DNA of 59,935 nt from a virus (IMGVR_UViG_3300005764_000020:1-59935); one strand, 5' to 3'. Positions 2,113-59,935 are shown, counted from the first letter of the stretch. Notes: a model not told the origin generated them from the sequence alone. A program made the numbers and translations.

Positions 2113-2371
2113 CAGCATCCCCGTGCGCCTGCCTGGGCAACCCCCGCAGGATGTTTTCGTCAACTTCCGAGTCGTGGAAAGCTCTAATGTCCTGAGAGTC
2201 GGCTGGGATGTTTTCGGGAACATGTACGTCACGTACTTGACCGGGAACACGTATGTCTACTTCGGTGTCTCGCGCCAGCGAGCCGTCGCTGCAGCATACG
2301 CTCCAAGCGTCGGAGCGTTCATCAACCGGCGCATAAAGGGCCGATTTCCAGCACAAAAGCTAGTGGCGTAG
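2096..2371 (+). CDS. KTSC domain protein
   Basis: VESSNVLRVGWD...MYVTY..G..YVYFGV...APSVGAFINRRIKGRF matches the KTSC pattern. Confidence 0.8.
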   Translation: MVTKNDSIPVRLPGQPPQDVFVNFRVVESSNVLRVGWDVFGNMYVTYLTGNTYVYFGVSRQRAVAAAYAPSVGAFINRRIKGRFPAQKLVA

Positions 2372-2376
2372 CTCCG

Positions 2377-2487
2377 CAGATCCCACCTTGAAAATCGGGT
2401 GGGGTCTGGAGGGCTAACCCTAGCCATCCGTGGCTAGATGAGGTATAGTTCCTCCTGGCTGTCGTTACCAACCAGAAAGGAGGGTAT
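2377..2487 (+). promoter_or_regulatory. Hairpin leader plus extended Shine-Dalgarno (copy 4, longer variant)
   Basis: CAGATCCCACC...GGTGGGGTCTG, CTAGCC-ATCCGT-GGCTAG, then AGAAAGGAGGGTAT before ATG 2489. Confidence 0.6.
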
Positions 2488-2488
2488 C

Positions 2489-2959
2489 ATGGCGAAGCTC
2501 GAACAGGCCCAAATTGACAAGGCCGCCAAGATCGTTGCCAAGTTCGACGGTGACGACAAGGATGCCGATGTCTACAAGGCCATCGCTTCCCAGCTCAAGG
2601 TCGGCACGTCCACGGCCGTTCAGCTCATGTACTACGCGGAGCCGATTGCGGATCCGAAGCTGAAGATCAAGGCCACTGGTGCCGCTGTCAAGGCGGCTCG
2701 GGACAGGCAGGGACTACGCTGGGAGCGCATCGCTGCTCGGGCGGACATCTCCGTCAACCGCGCCCGCGAGTTGTATGAAGAGGCGGGTGGTGACATCGAC
2801 TCAAGCTACACGGGTCGTGGCAAGCGGCCGGGAGGTGCTCCAGCAGAGGCGAAGAGCAAGGCCACGGGTGCCAAGCGTGGTGCGGCCAAGAAGTCTACGG
2901 CCAAGAAGGGACCGCAGAAGGCCCGCACTCGCGCGCAGTTGGCGGCCCGCCGCCCTTAG
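2489..2959 (+). CDS. HTH-like DNA-binding protein with Lys/Ala-rich tail
   Basis: LRWERIAARADISVNRARELY helix-turn-helix-like segment; basic tail; strong RBS. Confidence 0.7.
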   Translation: MAKLEQAQIDKAAKIVAKFDGDDKDADVYKAIASQLKVGTSTAVQLMYYAEPIADPKLKIKATGAAVKAARDRQGLRWERIAARADISVNRARELYEEAGGDIDSSYTGRGKRPGGAPAEAKSKATGAKRGAAKKSTAKKGPQKARTRAQLAARRP

Positions 2960-3330
2960 CTCATGTCGATACCGATGACGAGATTCGTCGCCTGATCGAG
3001 GGCAGGACACTGGTGTGCCAGACTTCTGTGCTTAACAACGACGGCCAGACTTCCATCGACTCGGTGGAAACGTACAAATGCGAGAAGTTTCACCAGTTCC
3101 TGCCCGCAGGCGTTACGAAGAGTGGTCTTGAGCGTGTTGACCCTCTGATTCAGTTCTGGTGCGAGAGCTTTCGTGATCCTCGCTCCAATTACATCAGATA
3201 TGGGTTCCTGCGCACGGTATCGACCATGAGTGTGATCGCCATAAAGGGCAAACCTCCTCCAGAGCCAGAACGGAAGCCTGTCATCAAGGCTCGGACGAGA
3301 GCCCAAAGACTTGCCCTTCGGGGTAAGTGA
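2956..3330 (+). CDS. Hypothetical domain; probable -1 frameshift extension of 2489..2959 (alternative: own GTG start at 3013)
   Basis: Frame is open and protein-like (LAHVDTDDEIRRLIEGRTL) upstream of its first start codon. Confidence 0.6.
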   Translation, partial: LAHVDTDDEIRRLIEGRTLVCQTSVLNNDGQTSIDSVETYKCEKFHQFLPAGVTKSGLERVDPLIQFWCESFRDPRSNYIRYGFLRTVSTMSVIAIKGKPPPEPERKPVIKARTRAQRLALRGK

Positions 3331-3459
3331 GCGGTGGGCGTTGTGGGACGGCGCTCCTACAACGCCCCGCTGCTCCGGGGGTCGTTGCGTCTATTGTACC
3401 CTCCGCGCGACGGCCTCCGGAGGAGCGGTTTGCCGCTCCGTAACTAGAAAGGAGGGTAC
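3331..3459 (+). promoter_or_regulatory. Hairpin leader plus extended Shine-Dalgarno (copy 5, longer variant)
   Basis: GGGCGTTGTGGGA...TCCTACAACGCCC, GGAGCGG-TTTG-CCGCTCC, then AGAAAGGAGGGTAC ATG. Confidence 0.6.
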
Positions 3460-5373
3460 ATGCCTCAGATTATGGCCGAGAAGGTCGGTGACGCCATCCG
3501 CGTCACTTTCTCGTTCGACGCCGGTATTGTGAGGGACGTCAAAACAGTCCCTGGTCGGCGGTTCCTGCCAGCAGAGAGAGGTGGCCCAGCTTGGCTGGTG
3601 CCGCTTGATCTGCCGACAGCCCGCCGTCTCAGGGAATTGTTCGGAGACCAACTCCTGCTGGGTCGCGACCTAGTCACTTGGGGTCGCGATGCCGTTAGCC
3701 AGGAACAAAGCCTAGCCTCGCTTGTCCTTTCGGACGACGCGGAGCTAGTCCACATGCCTGCTATGCTACCGGGGCTGGATGGGTTTATCCGTGGCGAAGT
3801 CACGGGCTGGCCCGACCGGCCCTACCAGCGAGCAGACATCAAGTTCATGGCGGCGACTTCCGCGATCAACGGCAATCAGCCACGTCTGGGGAAAACGCTA
3901 GAGGTCATCGGTGCTGTCTACGAGGCGATGATCCATGATGGGCCACACCTCGTAGTCGCTCCACAGACCAGCCTGGAAACAGTCTGGCGCTTCGAGTTGG
4001 AGCGATGGCAGCGATTGCCCGTATTCACGTACTCGGGCGAGACGCCTCAAGCTACACGAGACGATATGCCTGACAACATTGCGGAAGCGATGGAAGTCAT
4101 GAAAGGCTACTGGCTCGTGACGACGCCGCATATGGTGCGACAGAACACTGAGATGTTCACGTTGGAGCGTTGGCGTACGGTAACGGTAGATGAGTACCAC
4201 CGACACGGACTCTCCAATACTAAGTCGCAGTTCTTTGCGGCGGTCAAGAGGCTGGAGACGGATCGCTTGTGGTTCTTGAGCGGGACGCCGCTGGGCGGCA
4301 AGGCGATTAAGATGTTCGCTCCGCTACAGCTGATGTATCCAAAGGTGTTTACCTCAAAGTGGCGCTGGGCCGACCAGTGGCTCGATGTCGAGACCAAGCA
4401 GATCCGGGTCAAAGGCGGACGCCTACAGACGGTCAGGGAGATCAAGGGGCTGAAGAAGTCCAAAGAGGCAGAGTTCTATCGTGCTCATGCTCCGTACATG
4501 GTGCGGCGTCTGCGCGAGGAAGTCTTGCCGCAGCTACCCAAGAAGCTCCCGATTGATGTCTGGTGTCCGATGACGCCTACCCAAGCGAAGCAATATGCGA
4601 AGTTCGAGGAAGCAGCGGAGCTAGTAATCAGTCATGTAGAGGCTGCTAAGGGCCAGCGTCACTTGCTATCCAACTGTATCCTGACGGAGTACCTACGGAT
4701 GAAGCAATTCGCCAATGCGTACTCGCTCGTCATGGAACGCGAGGATAAGTGCAAGTGGTGTAAAGGCAATGGCGCTACGTCCGCGACCGAATGCTGGTAC
4801 TGTTCTGGTACCGGCAAGCAGGTCATGCTCCAACTACACCCGACTGAAGACAGTGGCAAATTGCCGTTCCTGCTCGACCGCCTGAAGGAAGCCGGAATTG
4901 ATCCCGACGATCCTGATGGCGACGATAAGGCCGTGATCGCGAGCCAGTTCAAGGGCATGGTAGACATGGTCGCGGACTGGCTGCCGAAGCAAGGCATCGA
5001 CTGTCTAAAGCTCACCGGCGATACGACCAAGCGTGGCGAGCGGGCTGAGATCCAACGTTTGTTTCAATCGGATGAAGGCCCGCGTGTGATCGTCATGACT
5101 ACGACTGCCGGCGGTGTTGCTATTGACCTGGGCCGTGCGGATACCTGCCATGTTCTCGATGAGACGTGGAATCCGGACGACCAAGAACAGTTGACAGACC
5201 GGATCCTCGGAGCCTACAAGCTCCATCAGGTCAGTTGTTTCTACTACAGGTCAAAGAACACAGTCGAAGAGTACATCGCGGGCGTCACTGCGCTCAAGAG
5301 CAAACTGAACGACATCGTTCTGGATGTTCACCGCCAAATCGCCCGCAAAAACCAGCCTCGCGTACGCGCGTAG
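3460..5373 (+). CDS. SNF2-family (SF2) helicase with inserted CxxCxGxG zinc finger
   Basis: RPYQ, PRLGKT, VDEYH, LSGTP, SGKL, GGVAIDL, WNP..QEQ...RI motifs. Confidence 0.9.
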   Translation: MPQIMAEKVGDAIRVTFSFDAGIVRDVKTVPGRRFLPAERGGPAWLVPLDLPTARRLRELFGDQLLLGRDLVTWGRDAVSQEQSLASLVLSDDAELVHMPAMLPGLDGFIRGEVTGWPDRPYQRADIKFMAATSAINGNQPRLGKTLEVIGAVYEAMIHDGPHLVVAPQTSLETVWRFELERWQRLPVFTYSGETPQATRDDMPDNIAEAMEVMKGYWLVTTPHMVRQNTEMFTLERWRTVTVDEYHRHGLSNTKSQFFAAVKRLETDRLWFLSGTPLGGKAIKMFAPLQLMYPKVFTSKWRWADQWLDVETKQIRVKGGRLQTVREIKGLKKSKEAEFYRAHAPYMVRRLREEVLPQLPKKLPIDVWCPMTPTQAKQYAKFEEAAELVISHVEAAKGQRHLLSNCILTEYLRMKQFANAYSLVMEREDKCKWCKGNGATSATECWYCSGTGKQVMLQLHPTEDSGKLPFLLDRLKEAGIDPDDPDGDDKAVIASQFKGMVDMVADWLPKQGIDCLKLTGDTTKRGERAEIQRLFQSDEGPRVIVMTTTAGGVAIDLGRADTCHVLDETWNPDDQEQLTDRILGAYKLHQVSCFYYRSKNTVEEYIAGVTALKSKLNDIVLDVHRQIARKNQPRVRA

Positions 5374-5421
5374 CTCGCGCGCATACGGGCTGCAGGAATC
5401 GTACTTAGCATGAACATGTGT

Positions 5422-5479
5422 TCGCGAGCCCCCGCGTACGTAAGAAAATTTGATTGTCCGCGTACGCGGGGGCGCGCGA
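5422..5479. repeat. Inverted repeat with perfect 13-bp core and AT-rich 20-bp spacer
   Basis: GCCCCCGCGTACG 5428-5440 and CGTACGCGGGGGC 5461-5473; extends to 19 bp with one mismatch. Confidence 0.85.
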
Positions 5480-5659
5480 GGATGTGTGGAGGCCGCTTAG
5501 TCGGCGGGCAGGGGCGTACGCGCCCGCGTCGGCTCGCGCGTAAGGGTTGGATGGGGTGTGGGCAACCATGCCGTAACGGGCTCTGCTCTTCGGCATTGCC
5601 GCCGAGTGAACCCGTGCACCCCATCCAGCAATCGACCTCCGGAAATGGGTACACAAATG

Positions 5660-5702
5660 GGCCCAAGTTGGCGATATTTGTCGTCGGCTCGGGTCTTTTT
5701 TT
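5660..5702 (+). terminator. Putative intrinsic terminator
   Basis: GU-rich stem GGCCC..TTGGCGAT/GTCGTCGG..GGGTC followed by a T run. Confidence 0.5.
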
Positions 5703-5834
5703 GTGCCATTGTATCAGACAATTATGAAACCCCCGGAAAAGCCGCCGATTCGCGTTTCAGCTTGATATCAGCTAGGATTCTCGTAGCCGATCCCCGCCGG
5801 ATCGGTCGCCGGGTCAATCATAGGAGGGTTCATA

Positions 5835-6092
5835 TTGCCAGAGGCATCTCTCAGAACGTCTCCATCAATGAGATATGACGCGATTCACAAGTGGGTGCGG
5901 CGTCATAAGGAAAAGGTAGGCATCTGTTCGCAATGTGGCGTCGGATACGCTGGTTCACCATTCCATACGGAGTGGGCCAACATCTCAGGGATCTATCGAC
6001 GCGAGCTTGATGATTACATCGAGCTATGTAAAAGTTGCCACTTCAAGCTCGATTATCCAGATGGGCATCCGAACCAGTTCAAGCCGAAATGA
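5835..6092 (+). CDS. Small HNH-like endonuclease
   Basis: IHKWVRR..CSQCG..EWANISG.YRREL.DYIELCKSCH. Confidence 0.7.
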   Translation: MPEASLRTSPSMRYDAIHKWVRRHKEKVGICSQCGVGYAGSPFHTEWANISGIYRRELDDYIELCKSCHFKLDYPDGHPNQFKPK

Positions 6093-7066
6093 TCTCAAAG
6101 CCAAAACTTCTCCGTTCTAGCGAGCGAGCGACCTTCAAACGCTGCCGCTGGAAGTATTACATGGAGTTTGTTGAGATGCGGAAACCGATCACCGAAGTAC
6201 CGCCGTTGCGCTTCGGTACTCTCATCCATGCCGCGCTCGCCGCGTACTACAAACCTGGCATGAAGCGAGGCCCACATCCTGCTGAAACGTACGCCGACTT
6301 GTACCGCGCGGACGTAGAAGAAGCAGCCAAGTTCGGCTTTCGCGTCGAAGAGGATGAGAAGTGGGTTGAGGCGGGCGAGCTAGGCGTGGCGATGCTCACC
6401 AACTACATCGGCACATACGGATCGGACGATGAGTGGGAAGTGATCGTCACCGAGATGCCGTTCCAAGTTCCGGTCAAGCATGATCCTCCGTTCATGTATG
6501 TGGGCGTACTCGATGGCGTCTGGCGCAAGACGGATACGGGTCGGCTCTGGGTACCAGACCACAAGACGACGGCCGCGATCCAGACCAAGTATCTCGCGCT
6601 CGATGAGCAGGCTAGCAGTTACTGGACATTTGGCCTAGAGTCGCTGTACCGTAAGAAGATGCTCGCGCGTAAGGAAGAAATCGAGGGCATCCTGTTCAAC
6701 TTCTTGCGCAAAGCGCCGCCGGATACAAGACCGCGTAACACGCTCGGCCAGTCTCTCAACAAGGATGGCTCAATCAGCGCGAAGCAGCCCGCGCCTTACT
6801 TCGAGCGCAAGTTGGTGCGACGCGGAGAGAACGAGCGCCGCTCAACCTACAACCGCGTCCAACTAGAAGTCGATGATATCATCCAGCTGCAAACAGACGG
6901 GCTCGACTCAGCCTACAAGAACGCCGGACAGTTCACCTGTCCTGGGTGCTGGGCATTTGATATCTGCGAGTTACACGAGATTGGCGCAGACTGGCGCGAG
7001 TTTCTGGACGCTACAACAAAGGAATGGGATCCATACGATGCCCACGAAGTCGCTGAAGGCCGCTGA
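6089..7066 (+). CDS. PD-(D/E)XK exonuclease, Cas4/RecB-like
   Basis: S.SER..FKRC, FGTLIH, E..F, G.LDG, DHKT, C-terminal CPGC...IC; ATGA overlap. Confidence 0.85.
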   Translation: MISKPKLLRSSERATFKRCRWKYYMEFVEMRKPITEVPPLRFGTLIHAALAAYYKPGMKRGPHPAETYADLYRADVEEAAKFGFRVEEDEKWVEAGELGVAMLTNYIGTYGSDDEWEVIVTEMPFQVPVKHDPPFMYVGVLDGVWRKTDTGRLWVPDHKTTAAIQTKYLALDEQASSYWTFGLESLYRKKMLARKEEIEGILFNFLRKAPPDTRPRNTLGQSLNKDGSISAKQPAPYFERKLVRRGENERRSTYNRVQLEVDDIIQLQTDGLDSAYKNAGQFTCPGCWAFDICELHEIGADWREFLDATTKEWDPYDAHEVAEGR

Positions 7067-7376
7067 GCGAGCGCGCGATGCCGCTATCGAGCAGGTCGCA
7101 GAGAGCAACGCATGGTGGATCCGCCAGGTCATGCCTATCGTCAAGGACATCTGTCTGCGACGTGTCCTGTTCACGACCGACGCGGTACGCCATCACGCCG
7201 ACCGTCTTGTCGGGCAGGCGCCAGAGCCGCGAGCGATGGGCGCTGTGATGACTGCAGCCCGTCGCGCTGGCTGGTGCGAACCGACGAACACAACGCATCA
7301 ATCTATCCGGGTCAAATGCCACGCTCGTCCGCTACGAGTCTGGCGCTCACTCCTACTGGAGAACGGACATGAGTAG
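7038..7376 (+). CDS. Hypothetical protein, possibly DNA-binding
   Basis: FTTD.V...PEPRAMGAV...A...GW...VWRS segment; overlaps nuclease 3' end. Confidence 0.65.
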   Translation: MPTKSLKAAERARDAAIEQVAESNAWWIRQVMPIVKDICLRRVLFTTDAVRHHADRLVGQAPEPRAMGAVMTAARRAGWCEPTNTTHQSIRVKCHARPLRVWRSLLLENGHE

Positions 7377-7449
7377 ACAATTGGTTCCTATAGCATGTTT
7401 CATTGTTATTACCTCGGCGATATTTGTATTCAGGGTTTGGTCGATATGA
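7369..7449 (+). CDS. 26-aa single-pass membrane peptide
   Basis: MSRQLVPIACFIVITSAIFVFRVWSI; GGAG RBS; ATGA overlap with next gene; below ORF-track length cutoff. Confidence 0.5.
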   Translation: MSRQLVPIACFIVITSAIFVFRVWSI

Positions 7450-7751
7450 GATTCTGGCTACCACTCCTGGTTGCTGCTGCGATAGCCGGATCGTTCTGGC
7501 TCGCAGTTGCGGACAGCGCGGCGCCACCTAGCAAGATCCCGGCGCGCGTCAAGAAGCTGGAACGCCAGGTCGCGTACTTGACTGAGCGAGCCGCTTGGTT
7601 CGATGACCGCGCCTCGGCGCTGGAGATTCGGATGCGCGGCCTGGAAGGGCGTGTAACGGATCTTGAGCGCAACCAAGGCACGGCAGCTCAGGCTGAGGAT
7701 GGCTTGCGCGTTCGGATCGAGAAGCTAGAGCAGGCTGTGTTTGGGAAGTGA
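7446..7751 (+). CDS. Membrane-anchored or secreted coiled-coil protein
   Basis: Hydrophobic N-terminus then heptad repeats (VKKLERQV, MRGLEGRVTDLE, IEKLEQ). Confidence 0.7.
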   Translation: MRFWLPLLVAAAIAGSFWLAVADSAAPPSKIPARVKKLERQVAYLTERAAWFDDRASALEIRMRGLEGRVTDLERNQGTAAQAEDGLRVRIEKLEQAVFGK

Positions 7752-7798
7752 TGCCATGACATGAACTGTTCCGCAAGCAACGAACAGAAAGGAACCAG

Positions 7799-8245
7799 AT
7801 GACGTTCTCATCCAGCTGGCAGGAAGTATCAGGCGACCGCGAGGGCGCAGACATCGACGCGACCGCCGGCACCCACTCACCTACTTGGGACAGCATGGAC
7901 GACGCAACACGCGACACTATCTCGCTCGCAACTCGTTCCGCTGAGGGAATCATCCAGGAGTTGTGCCACAACCTGAGCGACGAAGAGCATCGCTTCCGCA
8001 TCACCATCTCCGGGCACGTCTCGGACGAGAACACCGATGGCATGCCGAGTTACATCACGCTGTCCGTCGCGCAGATGGATGGGCCGGTCGCTGCTGAGGC
8101 ACCGGCTGAGGAGCCGCCCGCCGAAGAGCAACCACCGGCTGAGGAAGCACCACCGGCTGAGGAAGCACCACCGGCTGAGGAACAACCACCAGCAGAAGAG
8201 ACACCACCAGACACAAGCGAGGCCCAACCGGAGCCCGCTAGCTAG
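7799..8245 (+). CDS. Acidic protein with PPAEE repeat tail
   Basis: RBS AGAAAGGAA; low-complexity C-terminus. Confidence 0.75.
   Translation: MTFSSSWQEVSGDREGADIDATAGTHSPTWDSMDDATRDTISLATRSAEGIIQELCHNLSDEEHRFRITISGHVSDENTDGMPSYITLSVAQMDGPVAAEAPAEEPPAEEQPPAEEAPPAEEAPPAEEQPPAEETPPDTSEAQPEPAS
8101..8210 (+). repeat. In-frame 18-nt tandem repeat (ACCACCGGCTGAGGAAGC)
   Basis: Units at 8131, 8149, 8167, 8185 plus degenerate flanks. Confidence 0.9.
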
Positions 8246-8253
8246 GAGATACA

Positions 8254-9039
8254 TTGGCGAAGCTCCCGCAAATCCGTCCTATCACCGAGTCAAAGCACAC
8301 ATTCATCTGTGTGTACGGCGACCCAGGCTGTGGCAAGACAACGCTCGCCGGATCCGGTGGTAAGGGCACACTGATTGTGCGCCCTCCCATCGACCACACC
8401 GATGCTATCGTCGGCTCGGGCGCGGATGAGATTGTCGTGCACTCCTGGGACGACATGCTTGAAGTCCAGGAGTTCGCCCGGCATGAAGGCGGGAAGGAGT
8501 ACGATTGGATCTGGCTAGACAGCGTCTCACTCTGGCAGGATGTCGGTATGGATGACATCTGGCAAGGCGTGATTGCCCAGAATCCACATCGGCTCAAAGC
8601 CTTCTACGACCGAGGCGAGTACCGGATCAACATGGGTCGCATCTCAGAGTGGATCCGGTACATGATCGGCAACGACACCTTCAACTTCGGGTTCACCGCT
8701 CATCCATTCTGGGCGACGTTCCGCGAGAACGAAGGTGAGGGCGACGATGTGACGAAGCTCATGCCATGGATCCAGGGGAAGTCAATGCCCCAGAAGCTCT
8801 GTGGTATGATGAACCTCGTCGCCTACATGACAGTTCATAAGCGAAAGGAAGGGGGACAACTATACCGTAAATTGACGTTTCATGGCACTGAGAACTTCTA
8901 CGCGAAGGATGGGCTGGGTGCGTTCCCGAAGGGCTACGTCATCAACCCAACCATGCCGGCAATCTCAGCGGCAGCAGATGCGGCGCGCAAGAAGAGTGTG
9001 CGTCCTACGGTCAGACGGAAACGGAGGATTACTGCATGA
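8254..9039 (+). CDS. AAA_24/Sak4-like P-loop ATPase
   Basis: Walker A VYGDPGCGKTT, Walker B-like IWLDSVS, FTAH; lies between nuclease and SSB-like genes. Confidence 0.8.
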   Translation: MAKLPQIRPITESKHTFICVYGDPGCGKTTLAGSGGKGTLIVRPPIDHTDAIVGSGADEIVVHSWDDMLEVQEFARHEGGKEYDWIWLDSVSLWQDVGMDDIWQGVIAQNPHRLKAFYDRGEYRINMGRISEWIRYMIGNDTFNFGFTAHPFWATFRENEGEGDDVTKLMPWIQGKSMPQKLCGMMNLVAYMTVHKRKEGGQLYRKLTFHGTENFYAKDGLGAFPKGYVINPTMPAISAAADAARKKSVRPTVRRKRRITA

Positions 9040-9800
9040 CCCGTATCGCATATGACGTCTCAGATGTCGAGGGTGCCGGCGGTGAAGATCCGGAGCCTGG
9101 CATCTACGAGGCGACAATCGTCGCGGCTGAGCAGCGCAGCGAGAAGGCAGACGGCTCGCCCGCGAACGACATCCATGTCACCTTTGACTTGGGCGGTGAC
9201 TACGTTCGCAAGCACGCGTACATCGGCCTAGGCGACGCGGCTGCTTGGAAGCTCAAGGAGTTCACGAACGCCTTGGGCCTCAAGGACAAAGGCACCATCG
9301 ACACGGCGAAGCTTGAGGGCAAGAAGGTGCGCGTCAAGCTCAACGCCGACACGTACGATGGCGAGCCCCGCTCGAAGATCGGCACCATCCTCAAGCTCAA
9401 GGCGGCCAAGGCTGAGGCCGTCGAGGAAGAGGTTGAGGAAGAAGAGGAGGTGGAGGAAGAGGAGCCAGAGGCTGAGGCTGACCTCGACTCGATGGACAGG
9501 GATGAACTGAAGGCGTTCATCAAGGAGAACAATCTGCGAGACGCAGGCGTCAAGGTGCTGCGGACGGACAGCGATGACGACCTGCGCGACAAGATCCGCG
9601 AGGCTATGCCTGAGGAGGCCGAAGCGGAAGAAGAGGAGGAGGATGGAGATGCCTCCGGAGGGGAGGATGACTACGACCAGTGGAAGCTGGCCGAGTTGAA
9701 GGAAGAGCTTGGTAACCGGGATCTCACCGTCGAGTCTCCGGTCACCAAGGCAAAAGCAATCGCGGCTCTCCGCGAGAACGACAGTGAGGAACCCTTCTAG
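9036..9800 (+). CDS. DUF669-like ssDNA-binding protein with acidic linkers and small helical domains
   Basis: PEPGIYEATIV...WKLKEF..ALG...GKKVRV; ends EEPF; position after Sak4-like ATPase. Confidence 0.7.
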   Translation: MTRIAYDVSDVEGAGGEDPEPGIYEATIVAAEQRSEKADGSPANDIHVTFDLGGDYVRKHAYIGLGDAAAWKLKEFTNALGLKDKGTIDTAKLEGKKVRVKLNADTYDGEPRSKIGTILKLKAAKAEAVEEEVEEEEEVEEEEPEAEADLDSMDRDELKAFIKENNLRDAGVKVLRTDSDDDLRDKIREAMPEEAEAEEEEEDGDASGGEDDYDQWKLAELKEELGNRDLTVESPVTKAKAIAALRENDSEEPF

Positions 9801-9827
9801 TAACCAAGTACATCTGGAGGAAAACTG

Positions 9828-10076
9828 ATGGCCGTATCGGCAAAGAAGCTGGAGAACAGGGACATCTACGAGATCAGCTATGGCAACTCGACAGGAGCGG
9901 GCTCGGTCACGGCCACGTTCACGAACCAGGCCAACGGTGACAAGTCGAGCAAAAAGGCCACCGATGATGGCACACTCGATGTGACCGTCGCAGCCGGGTT
10001 CAGCGGTACGGACGACGTGACCATCGTGCACGAGGATGGCACTGAACTCGACTCCGGCACCATCACGTTCGGCTAG
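9828..10076 (+). CDS. Hypothetical beta-rich protein
   Basis: GGAGG RBS; Thr/Gly/Asp-rich. Confidence 0.7.
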   Translation: MAVSAKKLENRDIYEISYGNSTGAGSVTATFTNQANGDKSSKKATDDGTLDVTVAAGFSGTDDVTIVHEDGTELDSGTITFG

Positions 10077-57404: not shown

Positions 57405-57737
57405 TTACAACTCTTCCTCTTCTTCCTCATCGATGTCAGTGACCAGCTTTGTTTTTGCTTCATGGGCTTTCATGTCTTCAATCTTCTTGTTCAGGTAGCT
57501 GAGCACCTCAAACTGCCACTGCTTCCCGCAATCGCCGAGTTCATGTTGAAGCAGTTCCATGGCTTCAACAGTCTGCCAGCGCGGGTCATTGATCCAGGTT
57601 CGTGCCTGACGAACGTACTTGCCAAAGTTTGGTATGTTGTTATCTAAACTTTTGATGAGCGGCTGTAACTTACGGTGGGCAACTTCCTGCTCTTTTGCTT
57701 TCATCGCCTTGTAGAATGGTGCGTCTTCAATTGGCAA
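57405..57737 (-). CDS. Hypothetical protein, first gene of - strand arm
   Basis: AAAGGAGG RBS, TTG start. Confidence 0.65.
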   Translation of the reverse strand: MPIEDAPFYKAMKAKEQEVAHRKLQPLIKSLDNNIPNFGKYVRQARTWINDPRWQTVEAMELLQHELGDCGKQWQFEVLSYLNKKIEDMKAHEAKTKLVTDIDEEEEEEL

Positions 57738-57919
57738 GGTGCTCCTCCTTTGCCTCTCGCTCCCCCGCGCGAGCGCACGGGCGCTGGGATGGGTGGTCTG
57801 CGTATGTTGTTGCTCGCCCCCGCGCGAGGGGCGCGGAGTAAGTATACTATATTCAATTCTCTCGCGTAGGGGCGGGGGCGAGAGTCATGTGAATGTGTAG
57901 ATGTGTGGTGTTCGGGCGT

Positions 57920-58135
57920 AGCGTACGCGGGGGCGGGCGCGCGTAGAGGTGTGGAATTGGGTGTTCCGCGTACGCGGGGGCGTGAAATTGGGTGTATTTT
58001 GTGTGAAATTGGGTGTTTTTGGTGGCGAGCGGTGTGAAAATGGTGTATTTTGTGTGAAAATTGGGTTTAGGTGTAAAATTGTGTGGAAATTTGAAAACCA
58101 TGTGATAGCAGGCTGTTTTCTGTGGAATTGGGTGC
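57920..58135. repeat. G/T-skewed region of degenerate GTG(A/G)AATTGGGTG repeats plus two CGTACGCGGGGGC copies
   Basis: AATTGGGT(G) near 57955, 57986, 58007, 58059, 58126; 13-mer at 57922 and 57969. Confidence 0.8.
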
Positions 58136-58416
58136 TTAAAGCATGAAAATTGACATAACATGAACGACAGCAATAGCTCATCCGGAGTCCCTTTAGGTTT
58201 TCTCTGGCGAGTTGGGGCGCGGGCAAGTGCGGCCCGGATTCCGCTTAGCTACTGGGTTTCCGCGTGGGTGCGCGCAGTAGCGTTCTCCAATAGGGCTACT
58301 AGACCAGGGCTAGTAGGGGATCTCGGATTCGATTACTTACGAGTCCTTTAGAATTGGCCGCTACCCTTAGGGAGATGGGTTCGGAGAGGCCGAGCCCCGA
58401 ACGATAGGAGTACGAT

Positions 58417-58668
58417 ATGTCCGTCTTTATCCCGACCCGCGAAAATTGTCTCGCGGAACTCGCGGATCCCGACAACCCGAACGCCCTCCGCGTACCGGAA
58501 GGCGAAAAGCCGACCGCGACCCGCGTCCGGAAGGCCCGCGCGAAGGGGTTCCGGTACGAGCGGATCGCCGCCGCGTACGGCATCTCGCCGAAGGCCGTCC
58601 GGGAACTCGAAAAGGCCAAGGGCGAGGCCATCTGGACGGGGAAGGGGACGAAGGCGCATCTCGCCTAG
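58417..58668 (+). CDS. Small HTH-like protein, paralog of the 2489..2959 domain
   Basis: FRYERIAAAYGISPKAVREL...WTGKG; AGGAG RBS. Confidence 0.7.
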   Translation: MSVFIPTRENCLAELADPDNPNALRVPEGEKPTATRVRKARAKGFRYERIAAAYGISPKAVRELEKAKGEAIWTGKGTKAHLA

Positions 58669-59400
58669 TCCGTAGGGAGTTGGGCGCCGAAAGGCGCCCT
58701 TCTCCGTACGGATCAGGCAAGACTAAGCCAACTCGATCAGGTAAAATCGAGGTAAGCTCCGTACGCCCGAGCGGGAGGCTAAGCAAGCCCAACCCGCCGG
58801 GGAAGCCCAACGGTAGGCTCAACGTTGGCGATCCGAAGCCCAACGTAGAATAACCAACCGGCCGAAAGCTCGACGCAAAGCCCATCGGCGCTTCTCCCGT
58901 CCGCATGAAGACGCGAGTTACGAACCAATCGCAACGGATCTTGCGGGGAGCGGGGGCCAACGACGCGGATGACGCCTCTTGCGGATAGCCTCAAAGGCTA
59001 CGGTAGAGAGCAATGAGCCAATCGCCCAACGCCCGAAGCGGCAAGGACGTGTTGGATGCGCCCGATGATCGGGGACGAGCCAAGTCTCGGCAGTTGTAGT
59101 GGGGCCACAAGACCGCCTATGCGGTGCTTGAGGGTTAGCTGAACTCAACTGTTGGAGAAAACTGGCGCCCGGCGCAATGGGAGCAAGCTCATTAGGAGCT
59201 AGCGTCAACCTCCCGCGTTAGATGATTCGGCAGCAACGAGGATCCAAGACCAACGAGTCGATCAAGGACAAGAAACGTTGGGTGGGACGGAGCGAGGCAA
59301 GCATGCGACAAGCCCATAGGAGGCACTTGCGCTCGCAATGGAGAATTGGTTATGTACCCTCTCCTTTCGGGGGTCGGGCCCAAGCAATTGGGCTCGGCCG
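58669..59400 (+). ncRNA. Candidate large structured non-coding RNA
   Basis: No credible CDS; many local hairpins, GNRA loops, nested long-range helices 58756-62/59287-93 and 58839-46/59275-82. Confidence 0.55.
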
Positions 59401-59458
59401 GGTGCGCCCAATCAAGGGCGTCGCCGGTCGAACAACGACCAAACGAAAGGAGAGCAAC

Positions 59459-59566
59459 ATGCTCTACATCTTGGCAGCAATGCCAATCGCAGCAACGCTC
59501 CTCGTCGCCCTACCAATCATGGGCGGCTTGTGGAGCCGCAGCAAGGGCGGGAGGATGGGCTGGTGA
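59459..59566 (+). CDS. 35-aa single-TM peptide
   Basis: GAAAGGAG RBS; MLYILAAMPIAATLLVALPIMGGLW. Confidence 0.6.
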   Translation: MLYILAAMPIAATLLVALPIMGGLWSRSKGGRMGW

Positions 59567-59778
59567 CCAAGAAAAAGCCAGGCAAGGTGAGCTTCAAGAA
59601 GGCTCGCAACTACCAACGGCCGTTCTTGGACACGGCTTCAACAGGCATCCCGTACATCGACCGCGAGCTAGCACAAGCAGTCAACTGCGACGCTTGTCCG
59701 AACATCGGGATCTTGACCTTCATGCGCGAGGGCAAGCGGCTACATCGCTGCCCCAAGCATGTTAACTGGGTAGCTTGA
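59563..59778 (+). CDS. Small zinc-finger-like protein
   Basis: GTGA overlap; CDAC...HRCPKH. Confidence 0.6.
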   Translation: MTKKKPGKVSFKKARNYQRPFLDTASTGIPYIDRELAQAVNCDACPNIGILTFMREGKRLHRCPKHVNWVA

Positions 59779-59781
59779 TAG

Positions 59782-59856
59782 CGCGTCGAGTTGAAAACCG
59801 AGTCAACTCGGCGCGGTAGCAACCGCTACCGCAGACAACAACCGCAAGGAGGGTGC
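59782..59856 (+). promoter_or_regulatory. Two-hairpin leader plus SD (copy 6)
   Basis: CGCGTCGAGTTGA...TCAACTCGGCGCG, then GGTAGC-AACC-GCTACC, then AAGGAGGGTGC before ATG 59860. Confidence 0.7.
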
Positions 59857-59859
59857 ACA

Positions 59860-59935
59860 ATGGCTCTCAAGCCATACAAACGCGAAAGACCGGGCGTTAA
59901 TGAGATCGCTCGTGTCAATACCAATTACGATGGTC
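59860..59935 (+). CDS. Hypothetical protein, truncated at window end
   Basis: Strong RBS; MALKPYKRERPG... Confidence 0.55.
   Translation, partial: MALKPYKRERPGVNEIARVNTNYDG

Follow-up and report, generated by a model that had tools for sequence, protein, structure and literature searches.

A clade-specific structured RNA region at the head of a soil phage early operon, with a predicted gate over the next Shine-Dalgarno sequence

To our knowledge, long structured non-coding RNAs of phages are few, and almost none of them has a known function. In T4, the proteins RegA and RegB control early mRNAs through their ribosome-binding sites; in lambda, nutR with its boxB lies after cro, and the leaders of P4 and P1 encode the RNAs CI and c4. 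Translational riboswitches, RNA thermometers and protein-bound operators form another kind of leader, in which the Shine-Dalgarno sequence (SD) is sequestered. The large RNAs GOLLD and ROOL are often found near tRNA genes in phages or prophages. As far as the accounts drawn on here describe them, both are ornate RNAs of phages and prophages, in a size class of ~600-800 nt, with many covarying helices and unknown function (PMC5737381, bioRxiv 10.1101/2024.12.08.627333). Cluster K mycobacteriophages carry start-associated sequences (SAS), asymmetric repeats that include the SD core and stand a few bases ahead of the starts of non-structural genes in one orientation; according to the parts of that study used here, the bases on either side of the core form no pairs with 16S rRNA, and whether an RNA or a protein binds the repeats is left open (PMC3203893).

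The locus described here belongs to a complete 59,935-bp phage record in IMG/VR (IMGVR_UViG_3300005764_000020), derived from soil metagenomes; we refer to this whole stretch of DNA as the window. The phage encodes a DnaE-type polymerase, a primase-helicase, a helicase, ThyX, a PD-(D/E)XK nuclease, a terminase, a portal protein and a protease, and ARAGORN found no tRNA or tmRNA gene in the 59.9-kb genome. The + strand carries the genes at 1-21,750 and those from ~58,400 onward; the late genes (22,000-57,737) are encoded by the - strand. Because a 44.8-kb relative contig (L134/L055) is collinear across the window's end-to-start junction, the + strand early operon can be taken to start near 58,150 and to run on at position 1. 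A structured element, at 58663-59458, sits at the head of this operon between a small HTH-like gene and the next ribosome-binding site, and all genes around it are on the + strand. An array of iterons (57937-58140) lies nearby within a divergent control region.

The HTH-like gene (58417-58668, + strand) is the first of the early operon and encodes 83 aa; we treat it as context, outside the RNA. Its product had no family at cut-off in Pfam, PHROGs or NCBIfam, with weak HTH matches below the Pfam cut-offs, and its nearest clusters in the ESM Atlas are HTH (score 0.90), which we regard as a lead only. A comparison with PDB sequences brought up a weak LysM-like stretch (E 0.05), which we regard as insignificant. 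On the other side of the element, a 35-aa hydrophobic ORF (59459-59566, + strand) overlaps the GTG (59563) of a Zn-finger-like gene. Contigs from four DNA runs, of low depth, were identical to the window, with zero variants in the element region; a look-up of runs containing the sequence listed none of RNA. A metagenome scan with an alignment of the HTH protein returned six loci, among them L165, and the comparisons below cover five distinct loci: the window, L165, L134 (= L168), L166 and L167.

The initial annotation had described about 790 bp without a credible CDS, and the comparison with L165 bears this out. Over 58669-59459 (767 aligned bases, 80.6 % identity), substitutions are spread flatly over the three codon phases (51/52/46), as against 8/8/31 in the HTH-like gene and 6/8/25 in the downstream Zn-finger-like gene. 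No + strand ORF of at least 30 aa lies wholly inside 58853-59222, the short ORFs of the stretch are not kept in L165, and its indels are not multiples of three. Neither the three-base periodicity nor the conserved reading frame of a protein-coding gene was found. Codon-level conservation of an overlapping ORF, which the initial annotation had named as an observation that would speak against its proposal, was looked for against L165 and not seen. We conclude that 58663-59458 of the window is non-coding.

The stretch is nevertheless far from free to drift. L165 aligns with the window over 58057-59462 at 78 % identity, and the 80.6 % identity of the element is like that of coding genes, whereas an unconstrained leader (58240-58359) is only 57-59 % identical. 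Within the element, a core at 58780-58899 reaches 91-95 %. To judge from these sequence comparisons, the stretch is under selective constraint.

Folding also sets the element apart from the rest of the genome. A comparison with shuffles had been proposed as a check, and the 792-nt fold is far better than either set of them, with z-scores of -7.30 against 20 shuffles and -8.78 against 15; fifteen other 792-nt windows of the genome gave a mean z of -1.33 (sd 1.34, minimum -3.42). Local windows of 200 nt across 58801-59300 do not exceed shuffles in stability (z -0.8 to +0.8); the excess comes from the hairpins on the 5' side, from the longer-range arms and from the 3' junction.

For an independent test, the structure was folded from the window alone (267 pairs) and the substitutions in L165 were then scored on those pairs. 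Pairing was kept in 24 pairs changed on both sides and broken in 7, and for one-sided changes the counts were 10 kept and 34 broken. When substitutions were permuted among columns sharing the same window base, the number of kept double changes was 4.1 +/- 1.9 with a maximum of 11, and none of the 5000 permutations reached 24. RNAalifold on the window and L165 gave 219 pairs, 28 of them doubly compensated, in 14 helices over 58663-59399; sliding the partners by 1-3 columns left 0-1 double changes. The window-alone test performed as it should on controls: a coding one, ORF84 of the sister lineage, showed 1 compensated pair against 2.1 expected and 0 against 1.9, and the non-coding spacer of that lineage was positive in the same test (7 against 1.4 expected and 11 against 0.8). 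Because the window and L165 are the only two sequences that carry the interior of the element, each interior helix rests on one pairwise comparison. Taken together, the substitution patterns show that the helices are maintained by compensatory changes.

The initial annotation had drawn the region as dense in helices, and all seven of the local helices it named are present, most with compensatory changes relative to L165. Double changes number two in 58682-99, one in CTCGAT/ATCGAG, and two each in 59085-92/59150-58, in 59292-301/59326-36 (which holds GCAAG/CTTGC) and in 59372-99; in TAGCCT/AGGCTA at 58986-59000 (58986-91/58995-59000), three of the six pairs are doubly compensated. The two nested long-range helices that had been thought to close a ~430-nt domain fared differently, finding no support in L165, in the minimum free energy (MFE) fold or in the consensus. 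In L165, a 1-nt deletion within GCTCCGT (58756-62) goes uncompensated, and the MFE fold of the window pairs this strand with 59338-43 instead. The other helix, CCCAACGT (58839-46) with ACGTTGGG (59275-82), is uninformative because both of its strands are invariant, and the consensus fold pairs 59276-83 with 59024-31.

The claim that G-U pairs and GNRA loops favour the + strand holds at the 3' junction and at the GAAA loop near the 5' end and is not borne out in the interior. The interior folds alike on both strands (MFE -344.5 vs -346.4; compensated pairs 24 vs 25), and its G.U pairs show no strand difference. Consensus energy mildly favours the + strand (-272.6 vs -257.1), and the 3' junction does so clearly (alifold -52.7 vs -41.7 kcal/mol), with G.U pairs that are invariant in all five loci. 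We therefore assign the element to the + strand on the strength of the 3' junction, the invariant GAAA loop and the orientation of the genes.

Comparison of the five loci shows an element that is modular in its sequence, made of a GAAA hairpin, a lineage-specific interior and a conserved junction. All five share the same order: the HTH-like gene, the GAAA hairpin, a TA[AG]AAT hexamer and the junction, which comes ~790 nt after the stop codon, so that the slot has about this length in both lineages. The interior of type A (window and L165) is ~600 nt of ORF-free sequence with compensated structure. In type B (L134, L166 and L167) there is instead a Cys-rich ORF of 84-85 aa, conserved and served by a strong RBS, and after it ~400 nt of different non-coding sequence; part of the latter is 97 % identical, the ORF only ~75 %. 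An nhmmer comparison of the type A and type B interiors found no homology except for a motif of hairpin 2, GGTAAAATCG. ORF84 was also compared with the Zn-finger-like protein, and the two are unrelated.

Because the sister lineage has a different RNA and a small Cys-rich protein in the same slot, we consider the interior exchangeable. The initial proposal of one ~700-nt RNA unit has to be given up on this point, as the interior is found in only two of the five loci that share the flanking elements. The "700-nt RNA" is instead a composite, since two shared ends of cis-acting type flank an exchangeable middle.

The 5' end is a long hairpin (hairpin 1, 58663-58718, + strand), whose outer stem (58663-72/58709-18) includes the TAG stop codon at 58666-68. 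Its inner GC stem (58682-88/58693-99) is capped by the GAAA loop at 58689-92, and the hairpin as a whole has five double compensatory changes relative to L165. Across the five loci the GC stem, of 7-8 bp, differs in sequence in every one and keeps its complementarity, and GAAA is invariant. Hairpin 1 was considered as an intrinsic (Rho-independent) terminator and rejected: the GC-rich stem-loop is present, the U tract is missing (the tails read TTCTCC, TTCCGC, CTCCCT and TTCCCG) and the terminator scan was negative.

In position, this arrangement is like lambda nutR and the leader-encoded RNAs of P4 and P1: the small HTH gene that opens the early operon is immediately followed by a conserved GNRA-type hairpin. 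The likeness extends to the presence of repeats and their complement in one leader (CCCAACG three times, CGTTGGG). A GC stem of 7-8 bp with a tetraloop is, however, unlike the short boxB, and boxA, an N-like protein and lysogeny genes are not among the features identified here.

Hairpin 2 follows (58733-58750, + strand), with a conserved GGTAAAAT in its loop and one compensatory pair relative to L165. The hairpin is not kept in the other lineage; TAAAAT or TAGAAT occupies the same aligned columns in five of five loci, ~45 nt beyond hairpin 1. This TA[AG]AAT (58743-48) is possibly the -10 hexamer of an internal promoter, for which no -35 was seen and the sigma-70 scan was negative. More generally, promoter and terminator scans gave nothing on the + strand in the element region, with genome-wide counts at chance level, and the terminator scan of 58669-59460 found no + strand terminator-like site between the HTH-like gene and the next genes.

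The type A interior begins with a multibranch Domain I (58764-58952, + strand), which has six double compensatory changes and a z of only -2.25; its compensated helices are 58771-75/58793-97, 58811-17/58854-60 and 58901-08/58939-46. The ultra-conserved core at 58780-58899 contains AAGCCCAAC three times, together with AAGCCCATC; the three copies are exact and lie within 60 bp, and the whole window has four exact copies. Two small hairpins on the + strand (58964-83 and 58986-59000) come next. Domain II (59049-59250, + strand) is built on a long irregular arm (59058-59175) with seven double compensatory changes (1 + 2 + 4), and its nested helices are 59085-92/59150-58, where G.U pairs of both sequences adjoin compensated pairs, and 59098-116/59121-40. 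Domain III is a hairpin (59292-59336, + strand) in which 59292-301/59326-36 stands with 59312-15/59320-24; it has three double compensatory changes.

The conserved junction (59354-59458, + strand) closes the element in all five distinct loci. It is ~105 nt long, and its first 26 nt (59354-79) do not vary among the five and occur nowhere else in the genome. Three helices make up the junction, P1 (59359-70/59443-54), P2 (59372-82/59388-99) and P3 (59400-09/59416-25), with a fourth hairpin in the window only. P1 pairs CUCUCCUU(UC) with the SD of the next gene, GGAGAG at 59449-54. The anti-SD strand is 16S-like and invariant, with CUCUCCUUUC inside GUACCCUCUCCUUUCGGGGGUCGGGC.

In the junction consensus, 8 of 32 pairs have double changes, compared with 0-3 in slid controls, and 95.6 % of the junction cells are paired. 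The double changes fall in P2 (three) and P3 (five of its nine pairs). P1 has none: eight of its twelve pairs never vary, and two vary on one side (U.G / U-A). Since there is no double covariation in P1, what speaks for this helix is its energy, together with an anti-SD strand that does not vary. An SD is also conserved for reasons of its own, which weakens the inference of P1.

The predicted fold of the junction is very well defined. Its z is -6.89 against 200 shuffles, the MFE structure takes 30 % of the ensemble, and the SD is paired in a conserved helix, P1 being part of the consensus of all five loci. The predicted probability that the SD is unpaired is 0.002-0.009 in the five loci, compared with 0.24-0.60 at six control SDs of the window. 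The folding models thus show the junction occluding the SD of the first downstream gene. Which gene this is varies. In the window it is the hydrophobic ORF of 35 aa; in L165, which does not have that ORF, the junction directly precedes the Zn-finger-like gene; and in type B the gene encodes an 88-aa secreted-type protein. Because the downstream gene differs between loci, the junction belongs to the upstream module and not to any one gene. A more distant relative (G003) is without the junction, and there the SD of the first early gene is buried in a short TACCCT/AGGGTA hairpin.

By these models, both ends of the element are of cis-acting type, a stop-codon hairpin and an SD-sequestering junction. 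The latter resembles the SD-sequestering leaders described above in that a conserved helix buries the SD before the start codon, and in that the junction core is conserved while peripheral helices (the P2 tip and P3) covary. It differs from them in matching no Rfam family, and its anti-SD strand also matches a phage-specific start box. The 600-700 nt of further conserved structure before the gate is far more than any aptamer known to us. As judged from the alignments, the invariance of the 26 nt and the 91-95 % identity of the core exceed what a passive spacer or a simple SD hairpin would call for. This excess conservation of the 26-mer and the Domain I core points to a further partner.

The start box just mentioned is AAGGAGGGTAC, which is found directly before early-gene starts, 0-6 nt upstream where the start is assigned. 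There are six boxes in the window, the first at 59846-59856 and the others at 66-76, 773-83, 1828-38, 2477-87 and 3449-59. Four are exact and two have one mismatch. Every one of them has + orientation and falls in the interval from the junction to the helicase gene, and the rest of the 59.9-kb genome has no copy at up to one mismatch. The count is 12 in L134 and 6 in L165, again all on the + strand and all in the early block.

The invariant strand of the junction, GUACCCUC(UC)CUU, is the complement of this box, its GGGUAC part included. That part presumably has no match to the usual 16S tail. Type B puts the complementarity to the box to use in cis. GUAC is missing from the adjacent SD of type A (GGAGAGCAAC), and the GUACCC of the invariant strand is kept there without a cis partner in that SD. 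Predicted duplexes of the invariant strand with the box sites have energies of -21 to -22.5 kcal/mol, and that with its own SD has -20.8 kcal/mol.

Early genes that share a ribosome-binding-site signature and may be controlled jointly recall the T4 system of RegA and RegB, with the difference that the candidate effector here is an RNA strand. AAGGAGGGTAC is also like the SAS of Cluster K, as far as the published description used here goes, in being asymmetric, in one orientation, near starts and confined here to the early block. The Cluster K consensus is 5'-GGGATAGGAGCCC, so we view AAGGAGGGTAC as an analogue and not a member, and the present phages are unrelated soil phages. A complementary invariant RNA strand heads the box-bearing block here, a feature not described for Cluster K in the portions of that report consulted (PMC3203893).

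None of the 4227 Rfam families matched the window at gathering score. At E up to 10, the region 57700-59935 gave noise only, with no row for GOLLD or ROOL, and a gathering scan of the L134, L165, L166 and L167 loci gave 0 matches. The Infernal scan suggested with the initial annotation thus leaves the element uncatalogued. Searches by sequence were equally restrictive. Neither blastn nor megablast found a match among INPHARED phages; the HTH-like and Zn-finger-like proteins found no relative in IMG/VR, where a 7-sequence HTH alignment found only the known contig; and a 21-mer scan of IMG/VR found only the known relative. In the records of 15 relatives with polymerase identity of 62 % or less, a DNA search with 58160-59460 gave chance 14-22-mers only. 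Among species genomes, a single 21-mer match in a Rokubacteria MAG was no homologue: its reverse complement is an ordinary RBS of bacteria. The HTH family itself counts 7 proteins among 5.8 billion; a third lineage of it, represented by the 89-aa P0006 and P0007 and nearer to the type of the window, is known from proteins alone.

Covariance models gave the same picture. A model of the junction, run on 41 sources (755 kb), recovered only the training loci and their duplicates, and a model of Domain I (R2), run on 53 sources (981 kb), recovered only the window, L165 and duplicates; in both searches all others had E of at least 0.02 and at most 15 bits. These searches covered the early regions of ~30 more distant relatives, in which the models matched nothing, and "class" is therefore a generous word. 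The sequence searches point to a module confined to a small clade. Of the proposal of a new large phage non-coding RNA class, what stands is a non-coding region with maintained structure and no Rfam match; the single unit and the breadth do not. The suggestion that the RNA works with the adjacent HTH-like protein has co-occurrence as its only basis, kin sharing both. With GOLLD and ROOL the element has in common its size class, its location in a phage and its many covarying helices. It differs from them, with no covariance-model match, no tRNA genes in the genome, an interior in two genomes only, and ends that are, by our models, cis-regulatory elements and not those of a free-standing gene.

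In the reading we prefer, to which we assign a probability of about one half, 58663-59458 (+ strand) is a densely paired stretch of the early transcript, left untranslated, that works in cis as a structured leader or intercistronic spacer and has a translational gate at its end. Transcription would run from the early promoter through hairpin 1, or would start afresh at the TA[AG]AAT hexamer, and a compact fold would protect the long untranslated RNA. The junction would silence the first downstream gene until P1 is opened, for instance by a factor, by processing or by refolding of the upstream domain. Opening of P1 would in turn time entry into the early genes that carry the AAGGAGGGTAC box, with the interior acting as an exchangeable input or stabilising domain of the gate. 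Counting against this reading are the lack of double changes in P1, a conservation of the 26-mer and the core beyond the needs of a simple SD hairpin, the GUACCC part with no partner in the adjacent SD of type A, the equal folding of the interior on both strands, and a middle (58801-59300) whose local windows do not exceed shuffles in stability.

Some of the same observations would suit a discrete, stable, trans-acting large non-coding RNA, which we think unlikely. It would arise from a TA[AG]AAT promoter or by cleavage of the early transcript. Such an RNA might use its exposed anti-SD/anti-box strand to pair with the AAGGAGGGTAC boxes of 6-12 early genes, timing or shutting their translation, or it might be an ornate RNA of GOLLD or ROOL size with another role. 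TA[AG]AAT is, after all, conserved in five of five loci right behind hairpin 1, and the 26-mer complements the SD core plus the box-specific GGGUAC, a complementarity kept in type A though the adjacent SD lacks it. Predicted duplexes with the boxes match the own-SD duplex, the early block that follows the element is the only place with boxes, and the ultra-conserved core suggests a bound partner. Yet the folding models lock the anti-box strand in cis, each transcript offers one anti-box for 6-12 boxes, and no terminator-like 3' end was seen; the interior, moreover, is found in two genomes only and replaced in the sister lineage, with no Rfam match and no tRNA neighbourhood. A further reading, built on the sequence complementarity, in which this element serves a start-associated-sequence regulon as its RNA partner, is improbable in our estimation. 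The strand, once released or accumulated, would here pair with AAGGAGGGTAC and switch 6-12 early genes off or on, and the ~600-nt lineage-specific ornate domain would make the RNA stable or responsive.

A passive structured spacer, which would stabilise the early mRNA, supply U-less terminator or processing hairpins, or exclude Rho, and would take no regulatory input, has the odds well against it. Strong GC hairpins do stand behind other early genes too (59779-59860, z about -5.5, and after ORF84 in the sister lineage), unrelated sequence can replace the interior, and canonical terminators are no commoner than chance in this genome. Such a spacer leaves unexplained ~700 nt of untranslated sequence with an equal length of ~790 nt in both lineages, cores of 91-97 % identity that exceed the conservation of the neighbouring genes, and an invariant junction that buries the SD. 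Least probable of all, and very much so, is a DNA-level element, be it a replication origin, a site for priming or R-loop formation, or an array of protein-binding sites, with AAGCCCAAC as binding sites and the hairpins formed in single-stranded DNA. The three copies of AAGCCCAAC within 60 bp of the ultra-conserved patch, the symmetry of the interior structure signal between strands and the position of the region beside the replication module and the divergent control region with its iterons would fit it. Fourteen helices, each with its own sequence and with Watson-Crick compensation, are however unlike protein-binding repeats, and the AAGCCCAAC copies stand in differing structural contexts at irregular spacings (18, 33 and 42 nt). 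The iteron array at 57937-58140 is a better candidate for an origin or operator, and the junction and the GAAA loop are strand-specific.

Returning to the gated leader, we conclude from the comparative evidence that the region is a real, uncatalogued, clade-specific structured RNA, akin to structured leaders, SD gates and large phage RNAs. The comparative support is unusually clean for so small a family, and the invariant anti-SD strand offers a testable handle. If the region is only a stabilising spacer, it would be an ordinary, well-documented, clade-specific leader. If the gate or the trans action on the boxes is real, it would show how a phage can use an RNA to time the translation of an entire class of early genes, and the element would give an experimental entry to what recognises start-associated sequences. 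Were the regulon reading true, the element would be an RNA counterpart of T4 RegA and RegB and the first candidate binder of SAS-type motifs of phages.

The early genes of this phage carry a stereotyped start-associated box, AAGGAGGGTAC, which occurs only before their start codons. Copies lie at 59846-56, 66-76, 773-83, 1828-38, 2477-87 and 3449-59 in the window, and the relatives' loci L134 and L165 hold 12 (2125-9990) and 6 (2346-5138), respectively. In copies with an assigned start, the box lies 0-6 nt upstream of the start codon. The series stops at the helicase gene, and no copy was found in the rest of the genome outside the early block. The box is analogous to the start-associated sequences (SAS) of Cluster K mycobacteriophages (PMC3203893).

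The divergent region separating the late from the early operons contains a direct-repeat array (57937-58140) of about six imperfect copies, GTGTGAAATTGGGTGT and variants, a candidate for an operator or for the iterons of an origin. A second box, CCGGAGTCCC, opens the early leader: it lies at 58182-58191 in the window, at about 730-740 in L134 and in the rotated record of G003, a more distant relative. Its conservation extends to a relative whose polymerase is only 61 % identical, and it may mark the region where early transcription starts.

Gene content around the conserved structured junction varies between loci. The 35-aa hydrophobic ORF that the junction is predicted to gate (59459-59566) is absent in L165, the closest homologous locus, where the alignment has 91 gap columns; this ORF may be a recent insertion or no real gene. 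In the sister lineage, the slot that holds RNA alone in the window is occupied by a conserved, basic, Cys-rich protein of 84-85 aa (1381-1635 in L134; also in L166 and L167), for which we found no family in Pfam, PHROG or NCBIfam. After the Zn-finger-like gene, a second strongly structured intergenic spacer (59779-59860; folding z about -5.5 in 200-nt windows) contains a 13-bp hairpin and a GGTAGC/GCTACC hairpin, lacks a U tract and is 89 % identical to its counterpart in L165.

In species genomes, the junction 21-mer occurs once, at 7348-7368 of L171, a Rokubacteria MAG scaffold. There it is an ordinary bacterial RBS (GAAAGGAGAGGGAGAGGGCGATG) in reverse complement, not a homologue, and it illustrates that the junction's invariant strand is an SD mirror.

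The early leader of G003 is a 1.4-kb, non-coding, AT-richer stretch full of AATT-type repeats and is unrelated to the window's region. The ends of this 64,370-bp record overlap by about 100 nt, and the records G006 and G007 have terminal repeats of 127 nt; these features fit assemblies that are circular or circularly permuted in this phage group.
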